Shown: positions 1,009 through 64,000 of the stretch, piece by piece
Position numbering within the stretch: position 1 is the first letter of the stretch
Layout of the letters: each line of letters starts with the position of its first letter
DNA from: a virus
DNA: 64,000 nt
Strand: one strand, 5' to 3'
Virus record (IMG/VR): IMGVR_UViG_3300031251_000011
Span: 11,765-75,764 of that record
The notes under the pieces: model-generated
The model's input: only the letters and a program-made list of their open reading frames with translations
Database searches by the model: none
What the model was told of the DNA's origin: nothing
Made by a program: the position numbers and the translations under genes

Positions 1009-1475
1009 ATAATTTATTGAGCAGGCGGCTGACGCCAGGCGAGCGCCTGCTGCTGTGGCGACGCAGCTTCGGATGGACGCAGACGCACGCGGCGATCCAC
1101 ACCGGCTTCTGTCGACAGCTCTACTCGCTGATGGAGCTTGACCAACACACGCCGATGATACGAACAGGACCGACGGGAAGACTGTCGTTTAGACCCGACA
1201 TACGTGAACCCTTGGACGAGGCTAAGCTGTTGTTCCTTGCGCGCCGTCGTTCCGGCCTGACCCTGGAGGAGATCGGGAAGAGGCTAAACGTCTCCCGCCC
1301 GACGGTTCTAAAGTGGGAGGACAGGGGGGACGCGAGGCTGAGGGCCTTCTACAAAACGCCTTCGTCGCTGAAAATAACGGCTGCGCCGAAAGGCATCCGG
1401 GTCGGGGCGCGGGTCACGGGACCCAACGGGTACAAAGGCAGGATCATCGCGGTCAGTGGTTCGGGAAAGGCCTAA
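1005..1475 (+). CDS. XRE-family regulator with two HTH domains
   Basis: 'WRRSFGWTQTHAA..YSLME' and 'RRRSGLTLEEIGKRLNVSRPTVLKWE'. Confidence 0.75.
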   Translation: MNNLLSRRLTPGERLLLWRRSFGWTQTHAAIHTGFCRQLYSLMELDQHTPMIRTGPTGRLSFRPDIREPLDEAKLLFLARRRSGLTLEEIGKRLNVSRPTVLKWEDRGDARLRAFYKTPSSLKITAAPKGIRVGARVTGPNGYKGRIIAVSGSGKA

Positions 1476-1495
1476 AACAGGCCCTTTCTTCACTG

Positions 1496-1525
1496 TTTAC
1501 TCCTGCCTAGACTTAGGCTTATAAT
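1496..1525 (+). promoter_or_regulatory. Sigma70-like early promoter TTTACT-N18-TATAAT
   Basis: Perfect -10 in an intergenic gap; same architecture at 7038 and 60503. Confidence 0.75.
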
Positions 1526-1542
1526 CCTCCCCGAGGGCGGCA

Positions 1543-1554
1543 AGCCGACACGGA
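1543..1554 (+). repeat. Leader motif A (AGCCGACACGGA), copy 1
   Basis: Identical 12-mer at 1543, 2054 and 7084, each flanked by a complementary stem. Confidence 0.85.
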
Positions 1555-1589
1555 CCCGCAGACCTCAGAATGGATAAGGAGACTTTCAG

Positions 1590-1985
1590 ATGGCCCGTTA
1601 CTCCACCGCCGACGTCCGCGTCGTTCAGGACCTCGTCAACAAGGCCGTGAAGGCCGCCCTCGCCGGGACAGGCTTTGAGATTGAGAACACGAAGGGGACC
1701 TACGGCGACAAGCTCGCCGTCAGCGTCAACTTCAAGCGCGCGGGAGAGGCCGGCGCTAACGACGTTCGCGACAAGTGGAACGCGTACTGCGGCCTCTACG
1801 ACCTGAAGCCCACGGACTTCGAGGCGACCTTCGTCAACGGCGGCAAGACCTACAAGGCCGTCGGCTTCAACCTGAACCGCCCCAAGTACCCGCTCGTCGG
1901 CGTCGAGGTGGAGACCGGCAAGACGCTGTTCTTCACGGAGCTGAGCATCAGCAAGATCAAGCGCAACGCGCTCGTCGCCGCGTAA
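1590..1985 (+). CDS. Hypothetical early protein
   Basis: Strong RBS TAAGGAG; phage-like codon usage. Confidence 0.75.
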   Translation: MARYSTADVRVVQDLVNKAVKAALAGTGFEIENTKGTYGDKLAVSVNFKRAGEAGANDVRDKWNAYCGLYDLKPTDFEATFVNGGKTYKAVGFNLNRPKYPLVGVEVETGKTLFFTELSISKIKRNALVAA

Positions 1986-1998
1986 CCTCCTCCTCTCA

Positions 1999-2038
1999 CT
2001 CAACCCCGCTCAGGCTAGGACCCTGACGCGGGGTTGAG
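1999..2038 (+). repeat. Intergenic bulged hairpin B, copy 1
   Basis: CTCAACCCCGC-TCAGG...CCTGA-C-GCGGGGTTGAG. Confidence 0.8.
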
Positions 2039-2053
2039 CTGTCAGAAGGGGCC

Positions 2054-4139: not shown

Positions 4140-5170
4140 GTTCGCAGCAGGCCCTCAACGACGCCGAGCTGAAGGTCATCGAGAAGGTCAAGAAGATACT
4201 CGACCTGGCCGCCCGCAACCCGAACGAGCACGAGGCAGCCTCAGCGCGGGACAAGGCGGCGCAGATGATGGCGCAGCACAACCTCGACGTCGCGACCGTA
4301 GAGGCCAACACAGGCCTGGTCGGCAAGCGCGAGGAGGCGCTCGTCGACGGGGGCTTCTACTCGTACCAGCGCGACCTCTGGAACTCCGTCGCCGAGCTTC
4401 ACTTCTGCAGCTACTGGAACCAGAAGTACCTGACGAAGGACTACGTCTCGCAGACCCACAAGGAGCGCGGCGTGTACCTCGGCATGAAGAAGGTCCGCGT
4501 CATGCGCAGGCGGCACGCGCTGATCGGGAGGGTGGTCAACGCCAGGGCGACGCAGGCGATGGCCGGCTACCTGCAGGAGGCGATCGAGAGGTCGCTGCGG
4601 GAGAGGCTGGCAGGCGACGCCGATGTGAGCCACCTCAACGCGGCCAGCAACTGGGCCCACTCCTTCCGGAAGGGCGCGGCCGCAAGGCTGACGCTCAAGC
4701 TGATGGAGCGTCGCGACGAGAAGCTGGCGGAGGAGGCGGCCGAGGAGGAGCGGCGCGCGAGGCAGGCGAGCGGCGTGTCGACCGGGACAGGCGTCACGCT
4801 GGCCACGTACTCCAAGTCGGAGGAGCAGGCGAACTACGACTACAAGCACGGCGACGGCTCTTGGCAGCGGCGCGCCGATCGCCGGGCCAGGTACGCGAGG
4901 GAGATGGCCGAGGAGCTTGCCGCTGAAGCTCAGTGGGCCAAGGACAACCCGGAGGAGGCGCGCAAGCAGCAGGAGGAGTGGGACAAGAAGGAGGCCAAGA
5001 ACTCCGCGCGCCGGAAGGGCCGGCGGTTCACGGGCTGGCGCAAGGACGGCACCGACCTCGGGGCCTACTACGCGGGGAGCGACGCCGCGGGCAAGATAGG
5101 CATAGACCCGCAGGCGGGAGACAGGGGGAAGACGGCGAGGCTGGCGGGCGGAAAGGACATACACCTATGA
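4136..5170 (+). CDS. DUF2786-domain protein
   Basis: N-terminal 'IEKVKKILDLAARNPNEHEAASARDKAAQMMAQHNL'; start at an ATGA overlap. Confidence 0.8.
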   Translation: MSSQQALNDAELKVIEKVKKILDLAARNPNEHEAASARDKAAQMMAQHNLDVATVEANTGLVGKREEALVDGGFYSYQRDLWNSVAELHFCSYWNQKYLTKDYVSQTHKERGVYLGMKKVRVMRRRHALIGRVVNARATQAMAGYLQEAIERSLRERLAGDADVSHLNAASNWAHSFRKGAAARLTLKLMERRDEKLAEEAAEEERRARQASGVSTGTGVTLATYSKSEEQANYDYKHGDGSWQRRADRRARYAREMAEELAAEAQWAKDNPEEARKQQEEWDKKEAKNSARRKGRRFTGWRKDGTDLGAYYAGSDAAGKIGIDPQAGDRGKTARLAGGKDIHL

Positions 5171-5252
5171 GCGCCGGCTCCGAGTTCATCCTGGCGGCGC
5201 TGTTCGTGGCGCCCTCCCCCTGGCTCTGCATCACTGTCGTCGGGTGGTTCCT

Positions 5253-5664: not shown

Positions 5665-5887
5665 CCTCTGCAAGGGCTGTGGCCTGCCCGTGAAGGACGG
5701 CGATGTTCGCTACGTTGCCTCCGAACATCGCGGCGAGTTCTGGCACTGGAACTGCCACAAGAAGGCTATCGACCTGAAAGGGCCACTTGCCAGGATCAGG
5801 CAGCTCAGCGACGAGGCGAGAGCTGTGATGCAGGACATCGAGCGCAAGACGACGATCAGACCGAGAGGACCCAATGGTAAGCGTTAA
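5657..5887 (+). CDS. Small Zn-finger-like protein
   Basis: CKGC..HWNC. Confidence 0.55.
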   Translation: MPDLCKGCGLPVKDGDVRYVASEHRGEFWHWNCHKKAIDLKGPLARIRQLSDEARAVMQDIERKTTIRPRGPNGKR

Positions 5888-6809
5888 GGACATGGACGAG
5901 CAGGGCGCCACCGGGACGTTCATCAACTACTCCGGCCGCTCCTTCAACAAGCCGCAGATGGCTCGCATCGAGACGATCAACGTGATCCTCGCGGAGTACG
6001 GCCGCGCGCTGACCGTGAGGCAGCTCTACTACCAGCACGTCGCGCGGGGCCTGATCCCGAACGAGCAGCGCGAGTACGGGCGCCTCGAACACCTGCTCGG
6101 CGAGGCTCGCCTGGCGGGCCTGGTCTCGTGGACTGCCATCGAGGACCGCGGCCGCAACCTGATGGGGCACCGCACGTACGACGGGCCGACGCAGGCGATC
6201 AAGGAGGTTCGCGCCGAATACAAGCGCGACCTCTGGGCCTCGCAGCCGATCAGGCTTGAGACCTGGTGCGAGAAGCAGGCGCTTGAGGGCGTCGTCGGCG
6301 AGATTTGCAACGAGGAGCGCGTTGACTTCTTCAGCACCAAGGGCTACAACTCATTGTCTGAGATGTGGCGCGCCGGGCAGCGCTTCGCGAACTACTACAG
6401 GAAAGGCCAGCGGCCGGTGGTTTTGCATTTAGGAGACCACGACCCCGCGGGCATCGACATGACGAGGGATTTGAAAGAGAAGCTCGCGATGTTCGCCGGC
6501 ACCGAGGTCACGGTCATCCGCATCGGCCTCAACATGGACCAGGTCGAGCGCCTCAACCCGCCGCCGCAGCCGGCGAAGGAGAGCGACAGCAAGACGCCGG
6601 CCTACGTGGCCGAGTACGGCGAGGACTGCTGGGAGCTTGACGCGCTGCCGCCCGACCAATTGCAAGCCGTGATTAAAGACGAGGTCACGAAGTGGCGCGA
6701 GCCGAAGCTGTGGGACGCGGCGCTGAAGGAGGAGGCCGAGGACAAGAACGAGCTGGACGCGATCATCGAGGAGCTGGGCGGAACCGCTGAACCTGAAATG
6801 GAGATGTAG
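5874..6809 (+). CDS. TopoVI-A/Spo11/JetD-like wHTH + TOPRIM protein
   Basis: 'LTVRQLYY' (CAP-domain Tyr), 'ETWCEKQAL', 'HLGDHDPAGIDM' (TOPRIM DxD), 'WELDAL'. Confidence 0.75.
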   Translation: MVSVKDMDEQGATGTFINYSGRSFNKPQMARIETINVILAEYGRALTVRQLYYQHVARGLIPNEQREYGRLEHLLGEARLAGLVSWTAIEDRGRNLMGHRTYDGPTQAIKEVRAEYKRDLWASQPIRLETWCEKQALEGVVGEICNEERVDFFSTKGYNSLSEMWRAGQRFANYYRKGQRPVVLHLGDHDPAGIDMTRDLKEKLAMFAGTEVTVIRIGLNMDQVERLNPPPQPAKESDSKTPAYVAEYGEDCWELDALPPDQLQAVIKDEVTKWREPKLWDAALKEEAEDKNELDAIIEELGGTAEPEMEM

Positions 6810-7555: not shown

Positions 7556-9150
7556 ACGCCGTCCTCCCCCTGTCCTCCGTGACTAAGCCCCGCCCCTTCG
7601 TTCCCTCCGAGATGCAGACCAGCTTCTTCAGCTGGGTGTCAGGGGGAAGGGGCTGCGCGATCCTTGAGGCCGTCGCCGGCTCCGGAAAGTCGACGACCAT
7701 CGTGCGGGCGCTGACCTTCATCCCGGAGTGGGTGCCCGTCCTGATCCTCGCCTTCAACGCGGCGATCGTCACGGAGATGAAGGAGAAAGTGGCGGCGCTC
7801 GGCAAGGAGCTGGGTCGCGACTTCCGCAACGTCCGGGTCAGCACCTTCCACTCGCTCGGCTTCGGCGCCTTGAAGAAGTTATTCAACTGCGACCATCGGG
7901 CCATCAAGACCGACCCCAACAAGCTCCTCACGCTCGCGGAGCAACTGTGGAGCGCCGAAACCGTCGAGCTGTACGGCTCGTTCGTCTGCGACCTCGTCAG
8001 CCTTGCGAAGGGTGAGGGCATCGGGACGGGCCTGTGCCACGACGAGACGCGGGAGTGGACACGGCTCATCGAACACCACGACCTCACGCACTCCAGCTAC
8101 GACGCCGACGACGAGACGGCCATCCGCCTCGCGCGCGAGCTGCTCAGCCACTCCACGACCGTGGCGAAGGACAAGCGCTGGATCGACTACGACGACATGC
8201 TGTATCTCCCGCTCAAGTGGAGGCTCAAGCACTTCGGGCAGGGCTGGGTGTTCATCGACGAGGCGCAGGACACCAACCCGGCTCGCAGAGCCATGGCCCG
8301 CGGCGCGCTGAAGGTCGGCGGCAGGCTCTGCGCCGTCGGCGACCGACGTCAGGCCATCTACGGCTTCACGGGAGCGAGCCACGACGCGCTCGATCTGATC
8401 GCGCAGGACTTCAACGCCACCAGGATGCCTCTGACGGTCTCCTACAGGTGCCCGCAGGCCGCGCTTGAGGCGGTCGGCCACCTCGCGCCGGAGTTCAGCG
8501 TACACGCGAGCGCCCCGCGCGGCTCCTACCGGAGGTACGTCACGTTGGACGACGCGCTCAAGGTCCTGAAGCCGACGGACGCGGTCGTGTGCCGGAACGT
8601 GGCCCCGCTCGTGACGCTGGCCTACGGCCTGATGCGTCGCAGGGTCGCCTGCCGCATCCTGGGCCGCGAGATCGGCGCGGGCCTGGTCAAGCTCGTGAAG
8701 TCGATGCGGGCGAAGACGCTGGACGCCATGCTTGAGAAGCTGGAGGCGTGGCGCGAGCGTGAGACGGCCAAGTTCCTGGCGCAGAAGAAGGAGCAGAAGG
8801 CCGACGCGGTCGACGACCGGGTGAACTGCGTCCTTGAGTTCGTGTCACAGCTCGATGAGAACTCGCGGACGGTGCCGAAGCTGATCGCGGCGATCGAGGC
8901 CACCTTCTCGAACGAGGACGGCTCGCCGCGGCTCACTCTCATGTCCTGTCACAAGGCGAAGGGGCTGGAGTTCGAGAGCGTGGCCCTGCTGCGGTCCGAC
9001 CTGATGCCCTCGCCCTGGGCGCGCCAGGAGTGGCAGCAGGAGCAGGAGCGCAACCTGGAGTACGTCGCCGGGACGCGGTTCAAGCTCAACATGATGGTGC
9101 TGAGCGACGACGGGTCGGAGAAGAAGGTCAAGAAAGAGGGCGGGCAGTGA
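7552..9150 (+). CDS. SF1 (UvrD/Rep-like) helicase
   Basis: Walker A AVAGSGKST; IDEAQD; VGDRRQAIYGF; SYRC; HKAKGLEF; YVAGTR. Confidence 0.92.
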   Translation: MNAVLPLSSVTKPRPFVPSEMQTSFFSWVSGGRGCAILEAVAGSGKSTTIVRALTFIPEWVPVLILAFNAAIVTEMKEKVAALGKELGRDFRNVRVSTFHSLGFGALKKLFNCDHRAIKTDPNKLLTLAEQLWSAETVELYGSFVCDLVSLAKGEGIGTGLCHDETREWTRLIEHHDLTHSSYDADDETAIRLARELLSHSTTVAKDKRWIDYDDMLYLPLKWRLKHFGQGWVFIDEAQDTNPARRAMARGALKVGGRLCAVGDRRQAIYGFTGASHDALDLIAQDFNATRMPLTVSYRCPQAALEAVGHLAPEFSVHASAPRGSYRRYVTLDDALKVLKPTDAVVCRNVAPLVTLAYGLMRRRVACRILGREIGAGLVKLVKSMRAKTLDAMLEKLEAWRERETAKFLAQKKEQKADAVDDRVNCVLEFVSQLDENSRTVPKLIAAIEATFSNEDGSPRLTLMSCHKAKGLEFESVALLRSDLMPSPWARQEWQQEQERNLEYVAGTRFKLNMMVLSDDGSEKKVKKEGGQ

Positions 9151-11055: not shown

Positions 11056-11322
11056 TGGCCTCCCCCTGCCCTCCCTGGTACGGCCGGAAGGCCCCGCCCT
11101 GGGCGGGCAGGGAGCCCGCCAGGCAGCCGCGGGGACAGGGGGAGGGAGGGTTGCCCCTCCTCGCCGGGCTCCTCCTGGTGGCCCTGTTTCTGGCCCTTCC
11201 CGACCTCCTGAAATAAGCCCCGCCAGGCAGGCCTCTTGCGGGCGGGTCCTGCCCTAGCTGCCCCCTGCCCCGACCCCTCGCTTTGCCCAAAATTCCCGGG
11301 GTTTCCCTACCCCCAAACGACT

Positions 11323-48438: not shown

Positions 48439-48589
48439 ACCCGTGGAGCTTTCGCAACCGGGTTAGCACGTCGGAAGAGCCCGCTAAGTACCAAGCCCTC
48501 GCCCGGGTGTCTACAGCTTTGCTAGACCTCGGCGGTGCGGGGGAGACAGGGGGAGCGTCGCGATCGCGCTGCACCGTGACCGGCAATCG

Positions 48590-53577: not shown

Positions 53578-53726
53578 ACCCCTCCTGCTACCAGGTGGCC
53601 GCGCTCGCCGACTCGCTCGCGAGCCTGACCGCGTTCATGGTCATAATCAACGTGGCGGCGCTCGCGGTGATCGTACCGTGCGCGATCGTGTTCGCCGTCA
53701 GCAGCTTCAAGAGAACCAAGGACTGA
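53574..53726 (+). CDS. Small membrane protein (50 aa)
   Basis: ATGA overlap; hydrophobic AFMVIINVAALAVIVPCAIVFAV. Confidence 0.45.
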   Translation: MNPSCYQVAALADSLASLTAFMVIINVAALAVIVPCAIVFAVSSFKRTKD

Positions 53727-53816
53727 CCGGAATACCCGCTTCACCCGGAGCGGGTTAACGGCCGCAGCCGGCGCGGCTTACACAATGAGCCGGCTTAACA
53801 GAAGGAAGTCACAGCT

Positions 53817-54824
53817 ATGAGCAAGACAACCACTCTCGCCAAGGACGACAGGGGCATCGAAGAGGCCGCGCGCAACGCGGGAGGTGCCGCGGTCGACGCG
53901 GGTCCCAAGATCGAGGGCGGCGCCCTCACCCAGACCGGCTCGCGCGCGCTCGCCAGCTACGACTTCGGCGAGGACGCCGGCGTCGGCCTGGAGAACGTCG
54001 ACAAGTCCGAGCTGAAGCTGCCGTGGATCACGCTGCTGCAGTCGAACTCGCCGCAGGTCGAGGACGGCGACCCGAAGCAGATGCCGGGAGCGAAGGCGGG
54101 GCAGTTCCTGAACACGCTGACGAAGCGGCTCTACGACGGCAAGAAGGGTTTCGTAATCGTCCCCGCGATGCGCGACCGCAACTTCGTCGAGTACACGCCG
54201 CGCAACCTGGGCGGCGGTTTCCTGGGCGCCCACTCGCCGACCGACCCCGCGATCACGACGCTGATCGCGAACCACAACCGGAAGCTCGGCCGCAGGCCCG
54301 ACGCCGAGATTTACGGCAAGCTCTCGACCACGACGAAGCACTCCAGCGACGGGCTCCCGCTCGACGGCACAGAGTTCATCGACACGCGCTACCTGTTCGC
54401 CGTGGTCGCGCCGGAGGACGAGCCCGCCTTCTGGGCCATGCTCTCGTTCAAGTCGACGCAGATCGACAAGCAGAAGCAGCTCGTGAGCCGCGCCCTCGGC
54501 TTCAAGTACCCGCACCCGGCGAAGCCCGGCGTCATGCAGAACCCGCCGCTGTGGGCTCACCGCTGGTACATGACGTCGAAGCCCGAGCAGAAGAAGGGCA
54601 AGACATTCCAGGGCTACGAGCTGAAGCTGGCCGAGAAAAACGAGGACGGCAGCGAGAAGCCCGAGTGGTTCTCTCTGATGAAGATGGACGACGAGCTGTA
54701 CCAGCTCGGCCGCTCCCTCTACAAGGCGATGGCGAGCGGCGAGGCTAAGGCCGACTTTAGCCAGCAGGCGAGCGAGGCCGACGGCGGCGCGGCCGCTGCC
54801 GACGAGGAAGACGTGCCCATGTAA
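53817..54824 (+). CDS. Putative ssDNA-binding/annealing protein
   Basis: 'GLENV...L.LP...LLQSNSPQV..GAK.G.F.N'; acidic tail DEEDVPM. Confidence 0.65.
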   Translation: MSKTTTLAKDDRGIEEAARNAGGAAVDAGPKIEGGALTQTGSRALASYDFGEDAGVGLENVDKSELKLPWITLLQSNSPQVEDGDPKQMPGAKAGQFLNTLTKRLYDGKKGFVIVPAMRDRNFVEYTPRNLGGGFLGAHSPTDPAITTLIANHNRKLGRRPDAEIYGKLSTTTKHSSDGLPLDGTEFIDTRYLFAVVAPEDEPAFWAMLSFKSTQIDKQKQLVSRALGFKYPHPAKPGVMQNPPLWAHRWYMTSKPEQKKGKTFQGYELKLAEKNEDGSEKPEWFSLMKMDDELYQLGRSLYKAMASGEAKADFSQQASEADGGAAAADEEDVPM

Positions 54825-54919: not shown

Positions 54920-56458
54920 GTGGCAACATTAGCCGAGAGGTTTCACGCTCTCTTCGCGGGCCTGCAGAGGGCGCACGGGGAGTACGTCGTGCCTGACGAC
55001 GCTGTCCCCGACGCCAAGGGCAAGATCGAGGGCAGGGCCAAGACCGTACACGAGCCACTGAGCGCGGAGCTTTGGGCCAGGCACCTGAAGGGCGAGCGCA
55101 GCTTCGGGCTCGGAGTCACGCCCATCACCGAGGACAACTCGTGCGGCTGGGGCGCGATCGACGTCGACGTGTACCCGCTCGACCTGCCTTCGCTGGAGAG
55201 GCTCTGCCGGAAGAAGGGGCTGCCCGTCGTGCTCTGCCGCACGAAGTCAGGGGGCGCGCACCTCTACGTATTCATGTCATCCCCCTGCCCCTCCGAGCTG
55301 GTGCGCTCTAAGCTGATGGAGTGGGCCGTGGCGCTGGGCTACCCCGGCGTCGAGGTGTTCCCCAAGCAGATCAGCCTGGCGAGCGAGCGCGACTACGGCA
55401 ACTGGATCAACATGCCGTACCAGGGCGGAGGCCGCACGACGCGCTACGCGCTGAGCGTGGAAGGTCAGGCGCTCTCGGCCGCGGAGTTCCTCGACCTGGC
55501 CGCGGAAAGGTCCGTGACCGAGGACTGGCTGCGCGCCTTCGAGCTTCCGCCCGACGAGACCACGGGCGACCTCTTCACCGGCGCCCCGCCGTGTCTGCAG
55601 ACCCTCGCCGTCACAGGTTTCAGCGGTCACCGGAACAACGGCCTGTTCTCCATCGCGGTCTACCTGCGCAAGCGTTACGGCGACGAGTTCGGCGAGCATC
55701 TGGAGAATTACAACCAGGAGTTCATGTCGCCGCCCCTGACCGGCGAGGAGGTCGGCAACACGGCCAAGTCCGTAAGGAAGAAGGCCTACTCGTACAAGTG
55801 CAAAGACGAGCCCATCTGCGCCGTCTGCAACAAGGAGGTCTGCCAGACGCGCGAGTTCGGCGTCGGCAAGGAGAACGAGGACCCCGGCGTCGTGTTCGGG
55901 CCGCTGGTGATGCTGATGACCGAGCCGCCGCTCTTCATCTGGGACGTGGACGGCGCGCGCATCGAGGTCGACGCCGAGGTCCTGATGAACCAGACGCTGT
56001 TCCACCGCGCCGTGATAAACAAGGGCATCAGGAAATGGCCCACGATGTTGAAGGGCCCGGCGTGGCAGAGGATCGTGCGCGAGAAGCTGGAGAGCGCCGA
56101 GCACGTGGACGTGCCGAAGGACGCCACCAAGGAGGGCCAGCTGGGCGAGCACCTGCAGGCGTTCTGCACGGGACGAAGCAGGGCGAGGGCTCTGGACGAG
56201 CTGCTGATGGGCAAGCCGTTCATGGACGTCGAGAACGGCCGCACGTTCTTCCGCGCGTCGGACTTCTTCGCGTACCTGCAGCAGCACCGCGTCGCCGGCG
56301 TGAGCGAGAAGGGCGTGTACGCGTGGCTCAAGCGCGAGGGCGTGGACCACCACTTCTACAAGCTGAAGGGCAAGGGCGTCAACTGCTGGAGCGTCGTCAG
56401 CTTCGAGGAGCAGACGGCTGAGCATGACGTGCCGAGGGTAGAGAAAGAGGAGATGTGA
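54920..56458 (+). CDS. AEP-family primase with a PriCT-like domain
   Basis: 'WGAIDVD', 'RTKSGGAHLYVF', 'EVFPKQ', 'GNWINMPY', 'PPCL..RNNGLF'. Confidence 0.82.
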   Translation: MATLAERFHALFAGLQRAHGEYVVPDDAVPDAKGKIEGRAKTVHEPLSAELWARHLKGERSFGLGVTPITEDNSCGWGAIDVDVYPLDLPSLERLCRKKGLPVVLCRTKSGGAHLYVFMSSPCPSELVRSKLMEWAVALGYPGVEVFPKQISLASERDYGNWINMPYQGGGRTTRYALSVEGQALSAAEFLDLAAERSVTEDWLRAFELPPDETTGDLFTGAPPCLQTLAVTGFSGHRNNGLFSIAVYLRKRYGDEFGEHLENYNQEFMSPPLTGEEVGNTAKSVRKKAYSYKCKDEPICAVCNKEVCQTREFGVGKENEDPGVVFGPLVMLMTEPPLFIWDVDGARIEVDAEVLMNQTLFHRAVINKGIRKWPTMLKGPAWQRIVREKLESAEHVDVPKDATKEGQLGEHLQAFCTGRSRARALDELLMGKPFMDVENGRTFFRASDFFAYLQQHRVAGVSEKGVYAWLKREGVDHHFYKLKGKGVNCWSVVSFEEQTAEHDVPRVEKEEM

Positions 56459-56506: not shown

Positions 56507-58255
56507 GTGACCACCAACCAGTACGGCCCCAAGACCCCGCAGGCCGAAGAGCTGCACGCCATGAAGTACCGCGGCCCCGGCGAGGACTTCCGCGAGGCCA
56601 TGAACCGCGTGGCCTTCGCGCTGAAGGACACCGACGCGCACTACCACGAGTTCAGGGAAATCCTTCTCAATCAGCGCTTCTGCCCCGGCGGGAGGATACA
56701 GGCGGCGATGGGCGCGACGCGGAGGACGACCGCGTACAACTGCTTCGTCAGCGGCTCTATCGCCGACACCTTCGTCGACGGGCAGGAGTCGATAATGGGG
56801 AGAGCGCACCAGGCGGCCGCGACGATGCGGATGGGCGGCGGCATCGGCTACGACTTCTCGACGCTGAGGCCGCGCGGCTTCCGCGTCGTCAAGATCGACT
56901 CGCAGGCGTCCGGCCCCGTGTCTTTCATGCCGGTGTTCGACGCGGTCTGCCTGGCGACAGCGTCGTTCGGACATCGGAGAGGGGCGCAGATGGGAGTGCT
57001 ACGCTGTGACCACCCGGACATCGAGGAGTTCATCGGGGCCAAGCAGAACGATGTTGCTTTGAAAGGCTTCAACGTTTCGGTCGCCGTCACCGACAAGCTG
57101 ATGGAGGCTGTCGCGCGGGGCTCCACCTTCTGGCTCCAGTGGAAAGGCGAGGACTACAAGGAGGTCGACGCGGCCGCGCTGTGGGAGCGCATCATGCGAT
57201 CGACCTGGGACTGGGCCGAGCCCGGCGTGCTCTTCATCGACACGATCAATCGCATGAACAACCTTCACTACTGCGAGACGATCGCCGCCACCAACCCCTG
57301 CGGCGAGCAGCCGCTGCCCCCGTACGGGGCGTGCCTGTTGGGGAGCTTCAACCTTACGAAGTACCTGACCCCCAACGTCAAGAGCGTGGCGGAAGCTGAC
57401 AATGGCGAGCCGGATTTTTATTTCAACTACGACCAGCTCATCACCGACCTGCCGGCCGTGGTCCGTGCCATGGACAACGTCGTGGACCGCACCATCTATC
57501 CGCTCGCCGAGCAGCGCGGCGAGGCGGTCAGCAAGCGGCGCATGGGCATCGGCGTGATGGGCTTGGCCAACGCGGGCGAGGCGCTCGGCTTCCCGTACGG
57601 CTCCCCCGCCTTCCTGGACTTCGAGGGCCGTGTGTTGCGAACGATCAACGTCGAGAGCTACCGAGCCTCAGCTTTTCTCGCCGGAGAGAAGGCGCCGTTC
57701 CCTCTCTTCGACGAGGAGCGCTACATGAAGGGAGAGTTCATCAAGACGCTGCCAGACGACGTGAAATTCTTGATAGCTTCCAACGGCATCCGCAACAGCC
57801 ACCTCACTTCGATCGCTCCGACCGGCACGATCAGCATGACCTGCGACAACATCAGCTCCGGCGTCGAGCCGGTCTTCTCCCACGAGACCACGCGGAACAT
57901 CAACACGCCGGACGGTGTCATGAAGACCGTGCTGCAGGACTACGGTGTCGGCTTCCTGGGGGTCAGGGGGAAGCTCAGCCGCGACGTCACGGCGCAGGAG
58001 CACGTGAACGTCCTGCTCGCGGCGCAGGCCCACGTCGACAGCGCGGTCAGCAAGACCTGCAACGTGTCGCCCGACATGCCCTGGGACGACTTCAAGAACA
58101 TCTACGTGGACGCGTACCAGGGCGGCGCGAAAGGCGCGACCACGTTCAACAGCGGCGGCAAGCGCTTCGCGCTGCTGGTCGAAGCGAAGCCGGTCAAGGA
58201 CGAGGGCGAGGTCAGCTGCGAGATCGACGCGAGCGGGCGGAGGAGCTGCGAATGA
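56507..58255 (+). CDS. nrdJ: Class II (AdoCbl-dependent) ribonucleotide reductase
   Basis: 'NCFV', 'GGGIG', 'RRGAQM', 'TNPCGEQPL..CLLGS', 'IAPTGTIS', 'VSKTCN'; C-terminal Cys pair; no beta-subunit gene nearby. Confidence 0.9.
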   Translation: MTTNQYGPKTPQAEELHAMKYRGPGEDFREAMNRVAFALKDTDAHYHEFREILLNQRFCPGGRIQAAMGATRRTTAYNCFVSGSIADTFVDGQESIMGRAHQAAATMRMGGGIGYDFSTLRPRGFRVVKIDSQASGPVSFMPVFDAVCLATASFGHRRGAQMGVLRCDHPDIEEFIGAKQNDVALKGFNVSVAVTDKLMEAVARGSTFWLQWKGEDYKEVDAAALWERIMRSTWDWAEPGVLFIDTINRMNNLHYCETIAATNPCGEQPLPPYGACLLGSFNLTKYLTPNVKSVAEADNGEPDFYFNYDQLITDLPAVVRAMDNVVDRTIYPLAEQRGEAVSKRRMGIGVMGLANAGEALGFPYGSPAFLDFEGRVLRTINVESYRASAFLAGEKAPFPLFDEERYMKGEFIKTLPDDVKFLIASNGIRNSHLTSIAPTGTISMTCDNISSGVEPVFSHETTRNINTPDGVMKTVLQDYGVGFLGVRGKLSRDVTAQEHVNVLLAAQAHVDSAVSKTCNVSPDMPWDDFKNIYVDAYQGGAKGATTFNSGGKRFALLVEAKPVKDEGEVSCEIDASGRRSCE

Positions 58256-58515
58256 TTAACCCCCTGTCCCTCCTGGTCGAGGCCTGCGAGTACCTTTCCG
58301 ACGGCGCGAGAGCCGCGCAGCAGCCGAGGGTCACCGCCCAGGAGGTTGGCGACGTGCTCGCGGCAATCGACGTGCTCGTGTACCGTGACATGTTCACCGA
58401 CGAGGAGCTGCGCGCGGCGAAGTTCCGACGCTTGATCGAGCTGAAGAAGCTGCACGGTGACGAGGCCGTGCTGGGCGTCAGCACCGGGAAACCTTTCACG
58501 GGGGTGAGCGGATGA
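58252..58515 (+). CDS. Hypothetical protein (MazG-like helix motif)
   Basis: 'EACE..QEVGDVLAAID'. Confidence 0.45.
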   Translation: MINPLSLLVEACEYLSDGARAAQQPRVTAQEVGDVLAAIDVLVYRDMFTDEELRAAKFRRLIELKKLHGDEAVLGVSTGKPFTGVSG

Positions 58516-58683: not shown

Positions 58684-59001
58684 GTGCACGACATCGAGGC
58701 CCTCCCTCCCCGCATCCGGAAGCTGCTGACGGTCTGCCCGATCAGCGGCTGCTGGGTCTTCGTCGGCAGGTGGACGACGGGGAAGGGCCACGCGAAGACG
58801 ATGTGGCAGGGGCATCACGTTATGCTCCACCGCGTCGTGTATTCGTTGTTAGTCGCCCCGGTCTGCTGGTGGCTCAACCTCGACCACCTCTGCAGGTTTC
58901 GCGGCTGCAGCAACCCGGACCATCTGGAGCCGGTTCCGCCGGTGGTGAACACGCGGCGGGGTGAGGCTAAACTGTTTAAGCGGCGCGCGGAGTATACATG
59001 A
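58684..59001 (+). CDS. HNH endonuclease
   Basis: 'GCW..G..HRVVY..LDHLC..RGC.NPDHLEPV...N..RG'. Confidence 0.85.
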   Translation: MHDIEALPPRIRKLLTVCPISGCWVFVGRWTTGKGHAKTMWQGHHVMLHRVVYSLLVAPVCWWLNLDHLCRFRGCSNPDHLEPVPPVVNTRRGEAKLFKRRAEYT

Positions 59002-60467
59002 AGAAAACTTTAGTTCTTGGTGGTCCGGGATGCGGCAAGACCACGCGCCTGCTGCAGGTGATGGAGCAGGCGCTCGACAGCGGCGTGCGCGCCAACCAGA
59101 TCGCGTTCTGCTCCTTCACCAACGCCGCGGCCGACGAGGCGCGCGACCGGGCGATGGAACGCTTCGGCCTCAAGGAGGAGGACCTGCCGTACTTCCGCAC
59201 GCTCCACTCTTTAGCATTTCGAGAATTAGGTGTGAGCAAACGCGACGTGGTCAGCAAGCAGCACCTGCTGGAGCTTGGCGAGCTGACGGGCGAGCTGATC
59301 GACCCGCGCGGCTACGACGTCACGGTGCCGGCCACCGGGATGAGCGCCGACCCGCTCATAACCATCGACGGTAAAGCCCGGATGATGCTTACGACGCTGC
59401 GCCGCGCCTGGGAGACCAACCAGGACGTCGGCGGCGACCTTGAGTGGTTCCGGCTGAAGCGCTTCTCCGACGCCTACACAAAGTTCCGCGAGGACCGCGG
59501 GCTGATCGACTTCACCGACATGCTTGAGCGCTACGCGTTCGGAGACGGCGGCCCCACGCCGGTGAAGGTGGCGATCGTCGACGAGGCGCAGGACCTGACG
59601 CTGCTGCAGTGGAAGGTGGTCGAGAAGGCCTTCTCGCACGCCGACGAGCTTTGGGTCGGAGGCGACGACGATCAGGCGATCTACGAGTGGTCCGGCGCGG
59701 CCACAGGTCATCTGATGAGCCTGGGCTACGAGCGCGAGGTCCTCCCCCTGTCCCACCGGCTGCCGCAGCAGGTGTTCGACCTCAGCCGCGAGGTCGTGAG
59801 CAGGATCGGGCGCCGCTTCCCAAAGGACACGAGGTCGAGCGGCCGCGCCGGAGCCGTCGAGTGGGTGTCGGGTGCTGAGGAGGTCGACCTGTCCAAAGGC
59901 AAGTGGCTGGTGCTGGCGCGGACGCGCTACCAGCTGGGACCTTTGGAAGAAGAGGCGCGGAGGCAGGGGGTTGTGTACTCGACGAAAGGCAGGCCCTCGG
60001 TAGCTCCCGCCCACGTCGTGGCCATCCTGGCGTACGAGAGGCTGCGGAGAGGCTCCAGGGTGGAAGGGCCTGAGGCGATCGCGGCGCTCAAAGCCATGGG
60101 CCTGCCGGTGAGGGAGATGGCTGAGGACAGGACCTACGACGCGGCAGAGCTGGGCGTGAGGTTCGAGGCGATCTGGCACGATGCGCTAGTCCGGATCAGC
60201 CCGGACGACCGCGAGTATTACCTGGCCTGCCTGCGCAGGGGCGACAAGCTGACGGAGGCCCCCCGCGTGAGGGTGGAGACCGTCCACGGGGCAAAGGGCG
60301 CCGAGGCGGAGAACGTCCTGCTCGTCACCGACATGACCTACAGGGTGAAGAGGGGCTACGAGGAGGACCCGGACGCCGAGCACCGGGTGTTCTACGTTGG
60401 CGTCACCCGGGCCTCCGGCAGCCTCCACCTGGTGGCCCCCCGCAGCGTGTACCCTTACCCCCTCTAG
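58998..60467 (+). CDS. Second SF1 (UvrD-like) helicase
   Basis: GGPGCGKTT; FRTLHS; VDEAQD; GDDDQAIY; TVHGAKGAE; FYVGVTRA. Confidence 0.92.
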   Translation: MKKTLVLGGPGCGKTTRLLQVMEQALDSGVRANQIAFCSFTNAAADEARDRAMERFGLKEEDLPYFRTLHSLAFRELGVSKRDVVSKQHLLELGELTGELIDPRGYDVTVPATGMSADPLITIDGKARMMLTTLRRAWETNQDVGGDLEWFRLKRFSDAYTKFREDRGLIDFTDMLERYAFGDGGPTPVKVAIVDEAQDLTLLQWKVVEKAFSHADELWVGGDDDQAIYEWSGAATGHLMSLGYEREVLPLSHRLPQQVFDLSREVVSRIGRRFPKDTRSSGRAGAVEWVSGAEEVDLSKGKWLVLARTRYQLGPLEEEARRQGVVYSTKGRPSVAPAHVVAILAYERLRRGSRVEGPEAIAALKAMGLPVREMAEDRTYDAAELGVRFEAIWHDALVRISPDDREYYLACLRRGDKLTEAPRVRVETVHGAKGAEAENVLLVTDMTYRVKRGYEEDPDAEHRVFYVGVTRASGSLHLVAPRSVYPYPL

Positions 60468-60586: not shown

Positions 60587-61270
60587 ATGAAAACATACCT
60601 CGTTCAGCTGACCCCCGCGGGCAAGACCCTCGTGCTTCCGTTCTCAGACCTGCCGGCTGCCAAGGCGATGGCCGCGGGTGAGTGGGAGGCCGGGACTCGC
60701 CTCTACACCCTGCAGGGCGCCAACGACCTCGCCACCGCCTCCTCCGCGGAGCTGGTCGCCCTCCACAACGGCCTCCTCCCGGAGGGCGGTAACAAAACAT
60801 CAAATTTCGATGATCTGAAAAAAGGTGCGAAGAAGGTGTTTGCAATGGTCCTGAAAGCCTGTATCACTTCTCCCGTTCCCGGAGATCAGGCGCCGGCCGC
60901 GGGGACCGAGGAAAGCATCCCGCCGGCGTCAGTCAAACCGAAGAGGCAGAAGACCATGGCTACCAAGACGAAGAAGACCCCCGCGAAGAAGGCCGCCAAG
61001 AAGGCCGCCAAGAAGTCCGCGACCCCCCGCGTGAAGGCCCCCGCCTTCATCGAGATCGGCAACGGCGCCCCGCCGGCCGGCACGACCTGCGGCCTGTTCA
61101 TCCGCTCGCTCATCATGAAGGGCGCGACGACCGAGGACATCCTCGCGAAGGTCAAGAAGCACTACCCCGACAGCACCGCGAAGGGCTCGGACGTCAGCTG
61201 GAACCGGCAGAAGCTCCGGGCGGACGGCATCAAGAACGTGCCGGACGCGCGGGTCGCGAAGGAGGAGTAG
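60587..61270 (+). CDS. Putative DNA-binding protein (Lys/Ala-rich linker + C-terminal helical domain)
   Basis: 'TPAKKAAKKAAKK'; C-terminal domain resembles the MTase C-terminus. Confidence 0.65.
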   Translation: MKTYLVQLTPAGKTLVLPFSDLPAAKAMAAGEWEAGTRLYTLQGANDLATASSAELVALHNGLLPEGGNKTSNFDDLKKGAKKVFAMVLKACITSPVPGDQAPAAGTEESIPPASVKPKRQKTMATKTKKTPAKKAAKKAAKKSATPRVKAPAFIEIGNGAPPAGTTCGLFIRSLIMKGATTEDILAKVKKHYPDSTAKGSDVSWNRQKLRADGIKNVPDARVAKEE

Positions 61271-61304
61271 ACCTCAGACCTCTCTCCCTAACTCTCTAAA
61301 GATC

Positions 61305-61336
61305 AAGGCCCCCTTAACCGGGGGCCTTCGTCGTTT
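61305..61336 (+). terminator. Intrinsic terminator
   Basis: AAGGCCCCC-TTAACC-GGGGGCCTT followed by CGTCGTTT. Confidence 0.6.
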
Positions 61337-61347
61337 GTGGGGTAAGC

Positions 61348-61650
61348 ATGAACATGAAGACTGCGAAATGGACCGCGAAACCCAACAGGCCGGGGCAGAC
61401 CGCCGGCTGGACCCTGCTGCGTGACGGCGTCCCGCTGATCCGACTCGGGCGCGTCATTGAGACGAACCCGGGATACCTGACGCTGGAGGAGTTCGCCGCG
61501 ACGGCGCACGAGATCGCGGACAGGCTGAGCGGGAGGACAGGGCCTCCGGCCGCTCCCGGATACGAACAGCCCTACGACCCGGAGCGCTGCCTCAACTGCG
61601 GGGGCTTTCATGGTTTAGGGCTTCCCTGCCCGGACCTGGTGCCGCGATGA
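61348..61650 (+). CDS. Hypothetical protein with a C-terminal CxxC..H..C motif
   Basis: ATGA overlap with the glycosylase gene. Confidence 0.55.
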   Translation: MNMKTAKWTAKPNRPGQTAGWTLLRDGVPLIRLGRVIETNPGYLTLEEFAATAHEIADRLSGRTGPPAAPGYEQPYDPERCLNCGGFHGLGLPCPDLVPR

Positions 61651-62144
61651 CACTTCGCAAGCCGTACGTCCTCCTCTTCCAGGAGACCCTTGCGCGCAGG
61701 CGCCCGAAGCACTGGAAGTTCTGGCTGCTGGTCGGCTGCGTCATGGTGAACCGCGCGAGGTGGGAGGAGGCGCAGCCGATCCACGCTGGCCTGATGGGCG
61801 CGTGGCCGTCGCCCGAGGGGCTGCTTGCCGGGCTCTCCCTGGAGGAGACGCAGGACGAGATGCGCCCGCTCGGCTTCCCGGTCAGCAGGGCTCGCGTCAT
61901 CAGGAACCTCGCGTTCAGGTGGCTCAAGGAGCCGCTGACGAACTACAAGGAGGTCCAGTCGGTGGTCGGCCTTGGGCAGTACGCCGCGGACAGCTGGGCC
62001 ATCTTCGTTGACGGCAAGCGGAACGTGAAACCGAAGGACAAGCGCCTGCGGGAGTTCCTGCGGGAGGAGAAACGTATCAAGGCCGAACGTGCCACCAGGC
62101 GAGCGGCGATCGACAAAGCAGAGTTCATGAGGGAGAGCGCGTGA
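61647..62144 (+). CDS. MBD4-like HhH-GPD DNA glycosylase
   Basis: 'LFQETL..W..LLVGCVMVNRA..WPSPE..RPLGF..RAR.I..GLGQYAADSWAIF..VKPKDKRL'. Confidence 0.82.
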   Translation: MTLRKPYVLLFQETLARRRPKHWKFWLLVGCVMVNRARWEEAQPIHAGLMGAWPSPEGLLAGLSLEETQDEMRPLGFPVSRARVIRNLAFRWLKEPLTNYKEVQSVVGLGQYAADSWAIFVDGKRNVKPKDKRLREFLREEKRIKAERATRRAAIDKAEFMRESA

Positions 62145-63565
62145 TGGCAAAACTTACGGCGATAGCTGCGGACGTCTTCGCGGGCGGCTTCTCGCTGGGA
62201 GTGCAGAAGCACTTCAACGTGCTGGCGCACCTGGAGGAGAGCAGTTACGGCGTGGCGACGGCGCGGCGCAACTTCCCGAAAATACCGATCCACGTCGGCG
62301 TCGACAACTGGCCGCTGGACTTCTTCAAGGACAAGGTCGACTTCGTGTTCGCCAACCCTCCGTGCGCGCCGTTCTCGGTAGCCGGTTACACGAAGACGCG
62401 GGGCACAGACAAGTGGCTCACTGATCCGCGGCTCGCCTGCACGCTCACGTGCGCCAACCTCCGGAAGACGCTGCGCCCGAAGGTCTACGCCACGGAGAGC
62501 GTCACGCAGGCCTGGAGCAAAGGTCGCGAGTTCATCGAGAACATGGTGAAGGAGGCGGCCGACGACGGCTACGCCACGACCGTGCTTCTGCACGACGCGC
62601 AGCACCTGGGCCTCCCACAGGCCCGGAAGCGCGTGTTCTTCGTCTTCCACCGTATCGGCTTCTCCCCGCGCGCTCCGAACTGGGCGCCGCCTCCGGTTCC
62701 GCTCGACGTGCTGCCGGACAAGCCGGTCGGGGAACCGATGATCGAGAAGCCGGACTACTTCACGGCGAAACGTCTGGCCAAGGTGCTGCCTGGCGAGCGG
62801 CTGAGCAAGTTCTGGGAGCGCACGCACCCAGACGAGAGCAAGTGGAAGCGGAACGCGCAGGGCGGCGTGGCGGGCAGGCCGGCGTTCGGTCATTGCCGGC
62901 TGCCGGTCGACAGGCCGAGCGGAGCCACGGTTGGCTATTGCCTGGCGCACCCCGTCGAGAACCGCTTCCTCTCCACCGAGGAGATACAGCTGCTGTCGGG
63001 CTTCCCGGCTGACTTCGTGTTCACGCCCAACGGCAAGAACGCCAGAGCTGCGGAGATAGCCCGCGGCGTCTGTCCGAAGGTCGGCGAGTGGCTGGCAGCG
63101 TCGGTGAAGGCAGCCATAGACGCTGACGCGCCGCTCGCTGACACCAAGCTGGTGGAATACGATTACAGGCGGCCGCCCGTTGACGCGGATGACGTGCAGC
63201 GCCGCGAGGTGCCGTTCGGGGAGACGTCCACGGAGCCTGCCACAGTGAGGTCAGGATCGCCGAGGCAGCCCCGCCTGCCGCGCACCGAGGTCCTGCAGGG
63301 CGAGCCGGCGAAGCCAAGGCCGGCGAAGTTCCCGGTGCCGAAGGCTGACCTCGGTTCGGGCAACTACATCAGGCTGCTGTTGACGATGGAGGTCTTCACG
63401 ACCGAGGAGATCGTGACCGCGGTGCATGAACATTTCAAGACGAGCAAGGCCACGGCGGCCGACGTGAGCTACCACCGAGGGAAGATGAAGGAAGCGGGCG
63501 CGCCTGTGCGCGTGGTCCGCGAGACATCGCAGGGGAGGCGGCTGGCGCCGCTGAAAGGAGCGTAG
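62141..63565 (+). CDS. C5 cytosine DNA methyltransferase with an extra C-terminal domain
   Basis: FAGG (motif I), NPPCAPFS (IV), ESV (VI variant), PQARKR (VIII), HP.ENR.LS..E....GFP (IX), RGV.P (X). Confidence 0.85.
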   Translation: MMAKLTAIAADVFAGGFSLGVQKHFNVLAHLEESSYGVATARRNFPKIPIHVGVDNWPLDFFKDKVDFVFANPPCAPFSVAGYTKTRGTDKWLTDPRLACTLTCANLRKTLRPKVYATESVTQAWSKGREFIENMVKEAADDGYATTVLLHDAQHLGLPQARKRVFFVFHRIGFSPRAPNWAPPPVPLDVLPDKPVGEPMIEKPDYFTAKRLAKVLPGERLSKFWERTHPDESKWKRNAQGGVAGRPAFGHCRLPVDRPSGATVGYCLAHPVENRFLSTEEIQLLSGFPADFVFTPNGKNARAAEIARGVCPKVGEWLAASVKAAIDADAPLADTKLVEYDYRRPPVDADDVQRREVPFGETSTEPATVRSGSPRQPRLPRTEVLQGEPAKPRPAKFPVPKADLGSGNYIRLLLTMEVFTTEEIVTAVHEHFKTSKATAADVSYHRGKMKEAGAPVRVVRETSQGRRLAPLKGA

Positions 63566-63568
63566 GTT

Positions 63569-63793
63569 ATGGCGAGAGGTCTGAAGGTTCCGGCGCACCT
63601 GGTGCCGGTTACGACCGAGCGGAAGAGCCCGGTCAGGAGCGATCGCACACACGGCATGAACGACGAGTTCGTCGAAGAATTGCTGTCGAAGGTCTCGAAG
63701 CTGCAGAGCGCCGGCATCAGCAACGCGACCATCCTGGGCGTGCTCGGCGACGTGAAGTTCAACATACCGAAACCTAAGAAGCCGAGGGCATGA
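63569..63793 (+). CDS. Hypothetical protein
   Basis: Follows the MTase; ATGA overlap downstream. Confidence 0.55.
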   Translation: MARGLKVPAHLVPVTTERKSPVRSDRTHGMNDEFVEELLSKVSKLQSAGISNATILGVLGDVKFNIPKPKKPRA

Positions 63794-64000
63794 CGATGGC
63801 CGAACCCGACGACAGCGCCGACTTCGAGAAGCGCCTCACGTGGAACAAGGGCGACCTGAAGGTCTACGGGCCGGACGGCAAGGAGGTCGACGTCAGCACT
63901 CTGAAGGAGGAGGAAGACGAAGAGGAGGACAACCCGCTGGCGGCCTTCCCCCTGTCCCCCGCGGCAGAGGAGCCCGAGGCTGACAGCGCCGGCCCGACCG
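63790..64000 (+). CDS. Acidic hypothetical protein, 3'-truncated
   Basis: Frame stays open to the window end. Confidence 0.5.
   Translation, partial: MTMAEPDDSADFEKRLTWNKGDLKVYGPDGKEVDVSTLKEEEDEEEDNPLAAFPLSPAAEEPEADSAGPT

Follow-up and report, generated by a model that had tools for sequence, protein, structure and literature searches.

Why should one short word recur through a phage genome, on both strands and in every reading frame, and what might read it? The question is raised by a stretch of 64,000 nucleotides, called the window below, which covers bases 11765-75764 of the 75,764-bp IMG/VR virus record IMGVR_UViG_3300031251_000011. The word is GACAGGGGG. The record comes from a rhizosphere metagenome, and its phage is labelled G000 in comparisons with other genomes. 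The original prediction for this DNA took the word to be a selected, orientation-independent signal. The first half of that proposal holds. The word is a signal under selection at the level of DNA: it is found in every frame, exceeds codon-aware expectations, and enters genes by substitutions through conserved residues. The second half fails, because the copies alternate between the strands and are spaced separately on each.

Fifteen exact copies had been listed in the window, and all of them are present at their coordinates and on their strands. The near-variants listed with them are also real, with a single slip (41547 should read 41545). When the window is shuffled with its dinucleotides preserved, 0.72 copies are found on average and 3 at most. 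In an unbiased scan of all 8-, 9- and 10-mers against an order-3 Markov model, GACAGGGGG ranks first.

The count for the whole genome depends on its ends. The first and last 140 bases of the record are identical bar one mismatch (genome positions 1-140 equal 75625-75764, or window positions 63861-64000), so the genome is circular or terminally redundant and has 75,624 unique bases. Genome positions 88 and 75712 are one site within this overlap. The genome therefore holds 18 distinct exact copies rather than 19, and the 15 of the window are unaffected.

A codon-aware null model had been proposed as the check on the word, and such a model comes nowhere near 10-15 copies. When synonymous codons were shuffled within genes across the coding sequence of the whole genome, 0.97 copies were expected, with a maximum of 5 in 500 shuffles, against 13 observed. 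Shuffling the order of codons in the same sequence lowered the expectation to 0.63. The broader pattern G.CAGGGGG occurs 30 times in coding sequence, against 5.2 under synonymous-codon shuffling. Codon or amino-acid bias as the source of the word is ruled out by these two kinds of shuffle.

Replacing the word letter by letter shows which positions matter. Positions 1 and 3-9 are strict, with variants there at or under expectation. Position 2 is free, in the order A19 > G13 > C6 > T5. The true word is thus GNCAGGGGG, with the core CAGGGGG. One-mismatch variants outside position 2 number 17, where about 19 are expected, so they show no enrichment. On the same strand the flanks are purine-rich, roughly GRR-GNCAGGGGG-RRG. 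The counts are as follows.

GNCAGGGGG: 36 in the window, 42 in the genome, about 3.5 expected in the genome
CAGGGGG core: 40 in the window, 48 in the genome, about 10 expected in the genome

The density of GNCAGGGGG is 0.57 per kb, or one copy per 1.8 kb. Grouped by strand after the fact, position 2 reads A12, T5, G3 and C2 on the plus strand and G10, A6, C4 and T0 on the minus strand. No conserved hairpin or longer repeat was found around the sites. The idea that the word is part of a longer repeat was rejected, as the flanks carry a purine bias only. A literature search on the word itself returned primer sequences only, and an exact 14-mer scan of IMG/VR returned chance matches only.

The sites in the window, in window coordinates, are these.

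887-895, minus strand, GCCAGGGGG; divergent (-,+) pair with 1320
1320-1328, plus strand, GACAGGGGG
5120-5128, plus strand, GACAGGGGG; inverted pair with 5216 (96 bp)
5216-5224, minus strand, GCCAGGGGG
7566-7574, minus strand, GACAGGGGG; divergent pair with 7638 (72 bp)
7638-7646, plus strand, GTCAGGGGG
11062-11070, minus strand, GGCAGGGGG; divergent pair with 11134 (72 bp)
11134-11142, plus strand, GACAGGGGG
11261-11269, minus strand, GGCAGGGGG
15334-15342, minus strand, GGCAGGGGG; divergent pair with 15521 (187 bp)
15521-15529, plus strand, GACAGGGGG
17486-17494, plus strand, GTCAGGGGG
17808-17816, minus strand, GGCAGGGGG; divergent pair with 17888 (80 bp); codes WQGV, in gap-free alignment to relatives
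17888-17896, plus strand, GCCAGGGGG
23302-23310, minus strand, GACAGGGGG
24422-24430, plus strand, GACAGGGGG; gene for a baseplate J-like protein
28517-28523, minus strand, core-only CAGGGGG (A at -2); divergent pair with 28945
28945-28951, plus strand, core-only CAGGGGG
32139-32147, plus strand, GACAGGGGG; gene for a 578-residue virion protein
34370-34376, minus strand, core-only CAGGGGG; divergent pair with 34389 (about 20 bp)
34389-34397, plus strand, GCCAGGGGG
37114-37122, minus strand, GCCAGGGGG
38430-38438, plus strand, GTCAGGGGG; major capsid gene
40124-40132, minus strand, GCCAGGGGG
41545-41553, plus strand, GGCAGGGGG
43151-43159, minus strand, GGCAGGGGG; C-terminus of the portal
44751-44759, plus strand, GACAGGGGG; N-terminus of the portal
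47764-47772, plus strand, GGCAGGGGG
48545-48553, plus strand, GACAGGGGG; intergenic; inverted pair with 48812
48812-48820, minus strand, GGCAGGGGG
49625-49631, minus strand, core-only CAGGGGG
51917-51925, plus strand, GACAGGGGG; non-coding; inverted pair with 51983 (66 bp)
51983-51991, minus strand, GACAGGGGG
55246-55254, plus strand, GTCAGGGGG; at residue 110 of the primase gene, a position shared with G726; inverted pair with 55281 (35 bp)
55281-55289, minus strand, GGCAGGGGG
57962-57970, plus strand, GTCAGGGGG; ribonucleotide reductase (RNR) gene, residue 486, same place in G727
58260-58268, minus strand, GACAGGGGG
59744-59752, minus strand, GACAGGGGG; at residue 249 of the UvrD-like helicase gene, a position shared with G727 and G729; divergent pair with 59962
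59962-59970, plus strand, GGCAGGGGG; helicase gene, residue 323, same place in G727, G728, G729 and G722
63948-63956, minus strand, GACAGGGGG; same site as genome position 88, through the 140-bp end overlap

The arrangement of the sites depends on strand. The 42 GNCAGGGGG sites of the genome are split 22+/20-, and in 32 of 42 cases the next site lies on the other strand (p=0.001). All 15 neighbouring pairs less than 450 bp apart are inverted and none has the same orientation. Only 5.2 inverted pairs would be expected within that distance, and 15 was never reached when one strand's sites were shifted around the circle about 2000 times. Each strand is also spaced evenly. The coefficient of variation (CV) of gaps between CAGGGGG cores is 0.39 on the plus strand and 0.48 on the minus strand, where random placement would give about 0.94 (p=0.0003 each), and the median same-strand gaps are 3.2 kb and 3.0 kb. 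Same-strand gaps of 2.9-3.45 kb number 12, against 2.7 expected (p=0.002 after correction for the choice of window). Even spacing per strand together with alternation means that the two strands are distinguished, a pattern that a strand-blind binder of duplex DNA would not give. A genome-wide polarity of the exact 9-mer (plus from 0.4 to 63.7 kb, minus beyond) was also considered and rejected, as it did not reach significance in a runs test (p about 0.12).

Placement with respect to genes follows no rule of this kind. The genome has a myovirus-like late operon on the minus strand, and its early and replication genes lie on the plus strand. Sites fall in each of the three frames, both sense and antisense, within the two blocks, and no closeness of sites to the starts or ends of genes was seen. 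Intergenic DNA has about twice the site density of coding DNA.

Evidence for selection can be found in virion proteins that are alignable with five complete relatives. In these proteins the sites are ungapped substitutions and never insertions. In the baseplate J-like protein, the conserved FY[A]P[IV]AALG has become FYPPVAALG, and this change of Ala to Pro creates site 24422. In the 578-residue virion protein (window 31940-33676), GV[T]LS has become GVPLS, where Thr to Pro creates site 32139. In the major capsid protein, A[SA]LT has become APLT, where Ser or Ala to Pro creates site 38430. Insertions of 9 bp, or scars of a mobile element, are ruled out by the gap-free alignment of sites to homologues. 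There is likewise no excess of near-cognate, "decayed" sites. Ungapped substitutions in conserved stretches and the lack of an excess of decayed sites indicate that the word is kept by DNA-level selection, not by mutational bias.

Is the word a property of bacteria that such a phage might infect? With the reversed word as a control, no enrichment was found in 401 Alphaproteobacteria, 301 Gammaproteobacteria or 10 genomes with portal-related prophages, where counts equal those of the control. These tallies include five genomes flagged as unpublished (G049, G249, G453, G555 and G710). The exact 9-mer occurs 8-102 times per bacterial genome. The sole outlier, G284 with 102 copies, carries an insertion-sequence-like repeat, and the next highest count is matched by its control. 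A Synechocystis plasmid shows no enrichment either. A DNA uptake sequence would saturate the host chromosome, and counts were at background in all sampled genomes.

Relatives of the virion genes do not share the word. Portal relatives, some of them prophages of Acetobacteraceae, Hyphomicrobiales and Pseudomonas, reach no more than 60% identity; their density of the word is 0.007-0.012 per kb, compared with 0.57 per kb in this phage. In the five complete relatives, of 70-73 kb, the word occurs 0-3 times and no other comparable word is present; the virion module alone is common to them and this phage. Among sequencing runs, identical low-coverage fragments occur in other rhizosphere runs, and a relative of 83-94% identity occurs in one watershed run.

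The word does occur in other phages. IMG/VR was scanned for an inverted pair of the word, which led to further phages with many dispersed copies (G722, G726 and G724 below), and a search with an alignment of the primases of G722, G726 and this phage gave 80 loci. Among the four loci nearest to G000 by primase identity, three have the word genome-wide (G727, G728 and G729).

G722, 74 kb, guanine-plus-cytosine (GC) content 0.51: 48 copies of GNCAGGGGG, 7 of the reversed control
G726, 50 kb: 15 copies of GNCAGGGGG, 2 of the reversed control
G724, a 14-kb fragment: 7 copies of GNCAGGGGG, 0 of the reversed control
G727: 54 copies, 6 of the control
G728: 53 copies, 6 of the control
G729: 50 copies, 8 of the control

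In G722 the CAGGGGG core occurs 89 times, against 16 expected. A block of genes is common to G722, G726 and G000. It contains an SNF2-like helicase, a Pam3 gp33-like and a gp34-like gene, an AEP primase and a UvrD-like helicase. All word-bearing genomes compared with G000 for gene content share this five-gene module except one, G723, and G724 lay outside the comparison. In the window the module reads as follows.

49086-51176, plus strand: SNF2-like helicase, first gene of the shared module
52645-54824, plus strand: Pam3 gp33-like and gp34-like genes
54920-56458, plus strand: AEP-family primase of 512 residues, with AEP-TOTE and PriCT_1 domains, the proposed reader of the word
58998-60467, plus strand: UvrD-like helicase of the replication module

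In a tree of the primases, G000, G727, G728 and G729 form one clade, and the helicase tree adds G722 to this group. The GC content of the word-bearing clade ranges over 0.51-0.65, which implies different hosts. The word is confined to a clade sharing a replication module.

Orthologues in this clade, 43-56% identical, can carry a site at the same residue. Helicase residue 323 has it in five genomes, helicase residue 249 in three; two genomes have it at primase residue 110, and two at RNR residue 486. An inverted pair is present in the helicase gene of each genome, even where the pair has moved. The sites thus show conservation as well as turnover.

The pairing is clearest in two of the relatives. 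Close pairs in G727, those within 650 bp, comprise 21 in the order (-,+), none in the order (+,-), and three more on the same strand. Its gap CV is 0.40 on each strand, with a median same-strand gap of 2.3-2.6 kb. In G729 there are 18 pairs of the order (-,+) and one of the order (+,-) within the same distance, with gap CVs of 0.48 (plus) and 0.51 (minus) and a median gap of 2.2-3.1 kb. The start of the word reads GNCA in G000 and ..CA in G727 and G729. The unit is a back-to-back pair, 5'-CCCCCTG-N(9-600)-CAGGGGG-3', present about 20-25 times per genome. So strong a single order in G727 and G729 indicates that the event at the word leaves in a fixed direction. If that direction is 5' to 3' along the G-rich strand, the two events of a pair diverge.

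What event could this be? The word array could quite plausibly, though we stop short of calling it probable, be a set of strand-specific start sites for the AEP primase of the phage, paired as bidirectional priming stations. While the word, its strictness, the selection on it, its spacing, its pairing and its restriction to one clade are matters of observation, we infer that the primase is the reader and that priming is the event marked.

Human PrimPol, a member of the AEP superfamily, prefers the start site 3'-GTCC-5' and makes the products AG, AGG and AGGG. The 3' G is a cryptic base that is not copied and stimulates initiation. Primases generally begin with a purine on a pyrimidine template after such a base (PMC5934617). 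The complement of the word, 3'-GTCCCCC-5', is the PrimPol site plus CCC, a fit to a distant member of the family. The invariant letters of the core other than G are C and A: the C, opposite G, matches the cryptic base, and the A matches the initiating nucleotide; the run of G and the purine 3' flank match the primer.

In the proposed mechanism, the primase (54920-56458) would take the G of 3'-GTCCCCC-5' as its uncopied cryptic base. It would initiate with ATP opposite T, to give pppAGGGGG(RR), and the new strand would extend in the 5' to 3' direction of the G-rich word. One site per about 2.3-3.3 kb per strand is on the scale of Okazaki fragments, so a fork moving in either direction could be primed. 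At (-,+) pairs the two primers would run outward, and the pairs could double as many small bidirectional initiation stations.

Shorter traces are seen in the wider primase family. ACAGG, with the complement 3'-TGTCC-5', is mildly enriched in 71 loci with this family (mean z 1.32, 11% with z>3), against a mean z of -0.33 and no value above 3 in 101 portal-relative loci.

Known cryptic-base primase sites, such as 3'-CTG-5' for T7 gp4 and 3'-GTCC-5' for human PrimPol, resemble the word in that a strand-specific signal goes with an encoded AEP primase and a purine-rich flank in the sense of the primer. They differ in being 3-5 nt long and occurring by chance, and are not known to be selected as an array across a genome; here a selected array of 7-9 nt is evenly spaced per strand, set in divergent pairs and carried through conserved codons, and priming would be its proposed use. 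Another comparison is offered by ssiA and ssiB of RSF1010 and by the origin of phage G4, which are hairpins of about 40 nt present once per replicon; RepB' of RSF1010 is AEP-like. These too are opposite-strand priming signals with outward synthesis and a dedicated primase. Unlike them, the word is linear, 7-9 nt long and without a conserved hairpin, and forms about 20-25 stations.

Several points weigh against assigning the word to the primase. The apparent link to the enzyme is correlative. PrimPol is a distant member of the superfamily, and its site preference cannot simply be carried over. Known primase recognition sites are 3-5 nt long, and a selected array of primase sites of 7-9 nt would be, to our knowledge, unprecedented. 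The order of pairs in this phage is mixed, 11 (-,+) against 7 (+,-). G722, G728 and G726 are rich in copies, yet these are spaced evenly only weakly or not at all and their pairs come in both orders, and G726 bears the word yet falls outside the main primase and helicase clade. No long word was found in G720, L560/G730 or L562, which have the same module and primases 45-48% identical, nor in about 60 more distant module phages, mostly of low GC content. A comparison of the 21-kb loci turned up no gene that every word-bearing genome has and every word-less one lacks.

Finally, a similar word in an unrelated phage could point to a host factor. G723 (L546-L550) is an 82-kb phage with direct terminal repeats and 84 copies of GACAGGG[GA] followed by purines, which alternate in strand (p=0.007). 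It has no detectable genes in common with this phage or the other word-bearers. Its own genes include a large D5-like primase-helicase (D5_N and SF3-helicase-type domains) and a TnpB-like transposase.

The words of other phages offer two further observations. L556 (Dinoroseobacter phage R5C) and L557 (Pseudanabaena phage Pan1), both cultured Nanhaivirus genomes and relatives by their primase, are enriched in the palindrome CGTTTAAACG and not in the CAGGGGG word. In each, CGTTTAAACG has about 10 dispersed copies per 50 kb (z 34-57), and it is common to phages of hosts from two phyla. The jumbo-phage contigs L503, L483, L527 and L432 have clustered, longer repeat units containing GCCAGGGGG, for example tagGCCAGGGGGttaagggggagc, which is a different phenomenon.

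An alternative to priming is Chi-like punctuation. A helicase-nuclease, either host RecBCD/AddAB or a UvrD-like machine of the phage, would stop degradation, start recombination, or both, when it meets the word. Both orientations would be needed because a circularly permuted headful genome exposes ends anywhere; the end overlap and the small terminase subunit, which is of the Terminase_2 type, are compatible with headful packaging. The Chi of H. influenzae is GNTGGTGG, which the G-rich word, strict at 8 of 9 positions with one free, resembles. Among the open reading frames (ORFs) that were scanned, neither a recombinase nor a RecBCD inhibitor came to light, even spacing per strand would fit selection for coverage, and the unrelated G723 bears a similar word. 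Phages without recombination modules (LLS, P1 and MD8) provide a close parallel, in which Chi is likewise the top over-represented oligomer, G-rich, strict, oriented and found roughly every 1.8 kb without regard to genes (PMC12315714, PMC3784561). The density of the word equals that of the Chi-rich LLS (one per 1.86 kb) and P1 (one per 1.9 kb), where Chi outnumbers every other octamer (PMC12315714).

On the host side the parallel is not borne out in the bacteria sampled. Chi is an abundant word of the host itself, and this word is at background in all of the 700 and more bacteria sampled. The Chi-like option of the original prediction, taken as a host Chi, is not supported in the roughly 700 Pseudomonadota genomes sampled; in these and in the Synechocystis plasmid the word is too rare to serve a host. 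It also follows the replication-module clade over a GC range of 0.51-0.65, and thus presumably over different hosts. Chi-rich cos phages have nearly all of their sites in one orientation, clustered near one end. Here the sites are on both strands (22+/20-), evenly spaced, alternating and in divergent pairs, and a stop signal does not predict the (-,+) bias of 21:0 in G727 and 18:1 in G729. We consider Chi-like punctuation unlikely.

A second alternative is strand-specific nicking by a phage endonuclease during replication, recombination or packaging. Lineage-specific nick motifs of Pseudomonas phages tf and Rembedalsseter (WACTRTGAC; PMC11780129), of T5 and of phiKMV are similar in kind: 9-mers of similar copy number, with at least 13 dispersed copies, intragenic, conserved in a clade and of unknown function. 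In about 45 kb, WACTRTGAC has 13 copies, and 60 related phages are enriched in it (PMC11780129). A nick would give the phage's family-A polymerase a directional 3'-OH, so divergent pairs would suit nick-primed synthesis. The published motifs are confined to one strand, at the places of physical nicks, whereas the word, known from assembled sequence, lies on both strands equally. Many of its pairs are 9-100 bp apart, so nicking would leave staggered double-strand breaks in virion DNA.

Genes for several small nucleases occur in the genome, and three loci are candidates.

5874-6809, plus strand: 311-residue enzyme like Topo VI-A, Spo11 and MksG, with an LRQLYY tyrosine motif and the Toprim residues E..DHD
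51173-51796: ORF like a GIY-YIG homing endonuclease (phrog_314), directly upstream of the non-coding stretch with the 51917/51983 pair
58684-59001: weak His-Me finger ORF, ahead of the UvrD-like helicase gene

The first is modelled by AlphaFold2 at a predicted local distance difference test (pLDDT) score of 88, and Foldseek relates the model to 9o8p_A, 1d3y and 8b7f with probability 1.0. A B subunit was not found nearby; a DUF2786 gene lies upstream, and DUF4031 and UvrD-like helicase genes lie downstream. The protein has more than 3,500 homologues of 55-60% identity on phage contigs of 45-100 kb. It is kept in thousands of phage contigs, the word-less G719 included, and among the loci compared no nuclease candidate is common to all word-bearing relatives. 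Nicking at the word strikes us as distinctly unlikely.

The third alternative is that the word is a static binding site, for a stoperator-like regulator or a genome organiser, or a guide for a methyltransferase. The original prediction had named as possible readers the domain shared by ORF 60587-61270 and the methyltransferase, and the product of 48734-49282; a helix-turn-helix (HTH) protein at 993-1475 is a further candidate. The domain is really shared. The C-terminal 54 residues or so of the C5-cytosine methyltransferase (62141-63565) are paralogous to the C-terminus of the upstream 227-residue ORF 60587-61270 (39% identity over 54 residues, E 8e-8). As a lead only, Atlas neighbours of the domain model are small winged-helix and ribbon-helix-helix (RHH) DNA-binding domains, with template-modelling (TM) scores of 0.5-0.69. 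These genes and 48734-49282 are absent from the 21-kb loci of word-bearing relatives, apart from weak matches in one, L561.

Stoperators of cluster A mycobacteriophages, which are bound by the repressor, are alike in being short asymmetric sites, 20-40 per phage genome and also inside genes. They are oriented with transcription, and here no relation to the direction of transcription or to gene junctions is seen, so the stoperator option put forward earlier is not supported. Static binding, or a guide role for the methyltransferase, is highly improbable: the higher intergenic density would suit it, but a monomer binding duplex DNA would be blind to strand, yet 0 of 15 close neighbours share an orientation and each strand is evenly spaced by itself, the sites ignore gene starts and ends, and the lack of one-mismatch enrichment is unusual for regulator sites. 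A promoter, terminator or RNA element was rejected, as there was no Rfam or tRNA match, no promoter-like site by intergenic copies and no link to gene boundaries.

Some other features of the genome lie near the word or resemble it. Between the late operon, whose first gene is a NusG/RfaH-like antiterminator, and the early genes is a divergent intergenic region. It contains a 92-bp AT-rich near-palindrome (window 48603-48694; 38-nt arms, 84% complementary) in a genome of 65% GC. The palindrome lies 50 bp from a copy of the word and could be an origin or an operator.

GCGATCGC, the cyanobacterial HIP1 palindrome, has 14 copies genome-wide, and CGATCGCC has 39 against 13.7 expected. It stands six bases after each of the word copies at 44751 and 48545, and G723 has 16 copies of it. 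This enrichment may hint at a host or a methylation site. A second, weaker enriched word is AAGGACA (22 against 6.3), with CAAGGACA at 11 against 2; words like it head the lists of the portal relatives L024 (AAGGACACC) and L010.

Before the window, the genome encodes a 609-residue protein with an ADP-ribosyltransferase exoenzyme domain (L009:172-2001). It is followed by a nucleotide block (L009:2024-7370; MazG-like, a thymidylate-synthase homologue, ThyX and kinases) beside the family-A polymerase, an arrangement that suggests a modified pyrimidine in the DNA.

To return to priming by the AEP primase, a wider claim can be built on it, which we regard as possible and rather doubtful. A clade of phages of about 70 kb would encode its own replication map, with about 20-25 paired outward-priming stations, genome-programmed Okazaki starts, and selection for the word strong enough to alter virion residues. 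Dialects such as that of G723 would follow the same principle with other primases.

The start sites of primases are, in textbooks, preferences of 3-5 nt measured in vitro, and we know of no genome that is shaped around them. If the priming map is true, it would be the first case of hard-wired, evenly spaced and paired lagging-strand or origin starts across a viral chromosome. Selection on start sites would then be strong enough to override protein sequence, and the word would open site choice by AEP primases to study from sequence. Whatever the function, be it Chi-like or nicking, an architecture of divergent pairs spaced per strand is conserved over a clade, and the word is of practical use as a marker by which mosaic replication modules can be linked in metagenomes.

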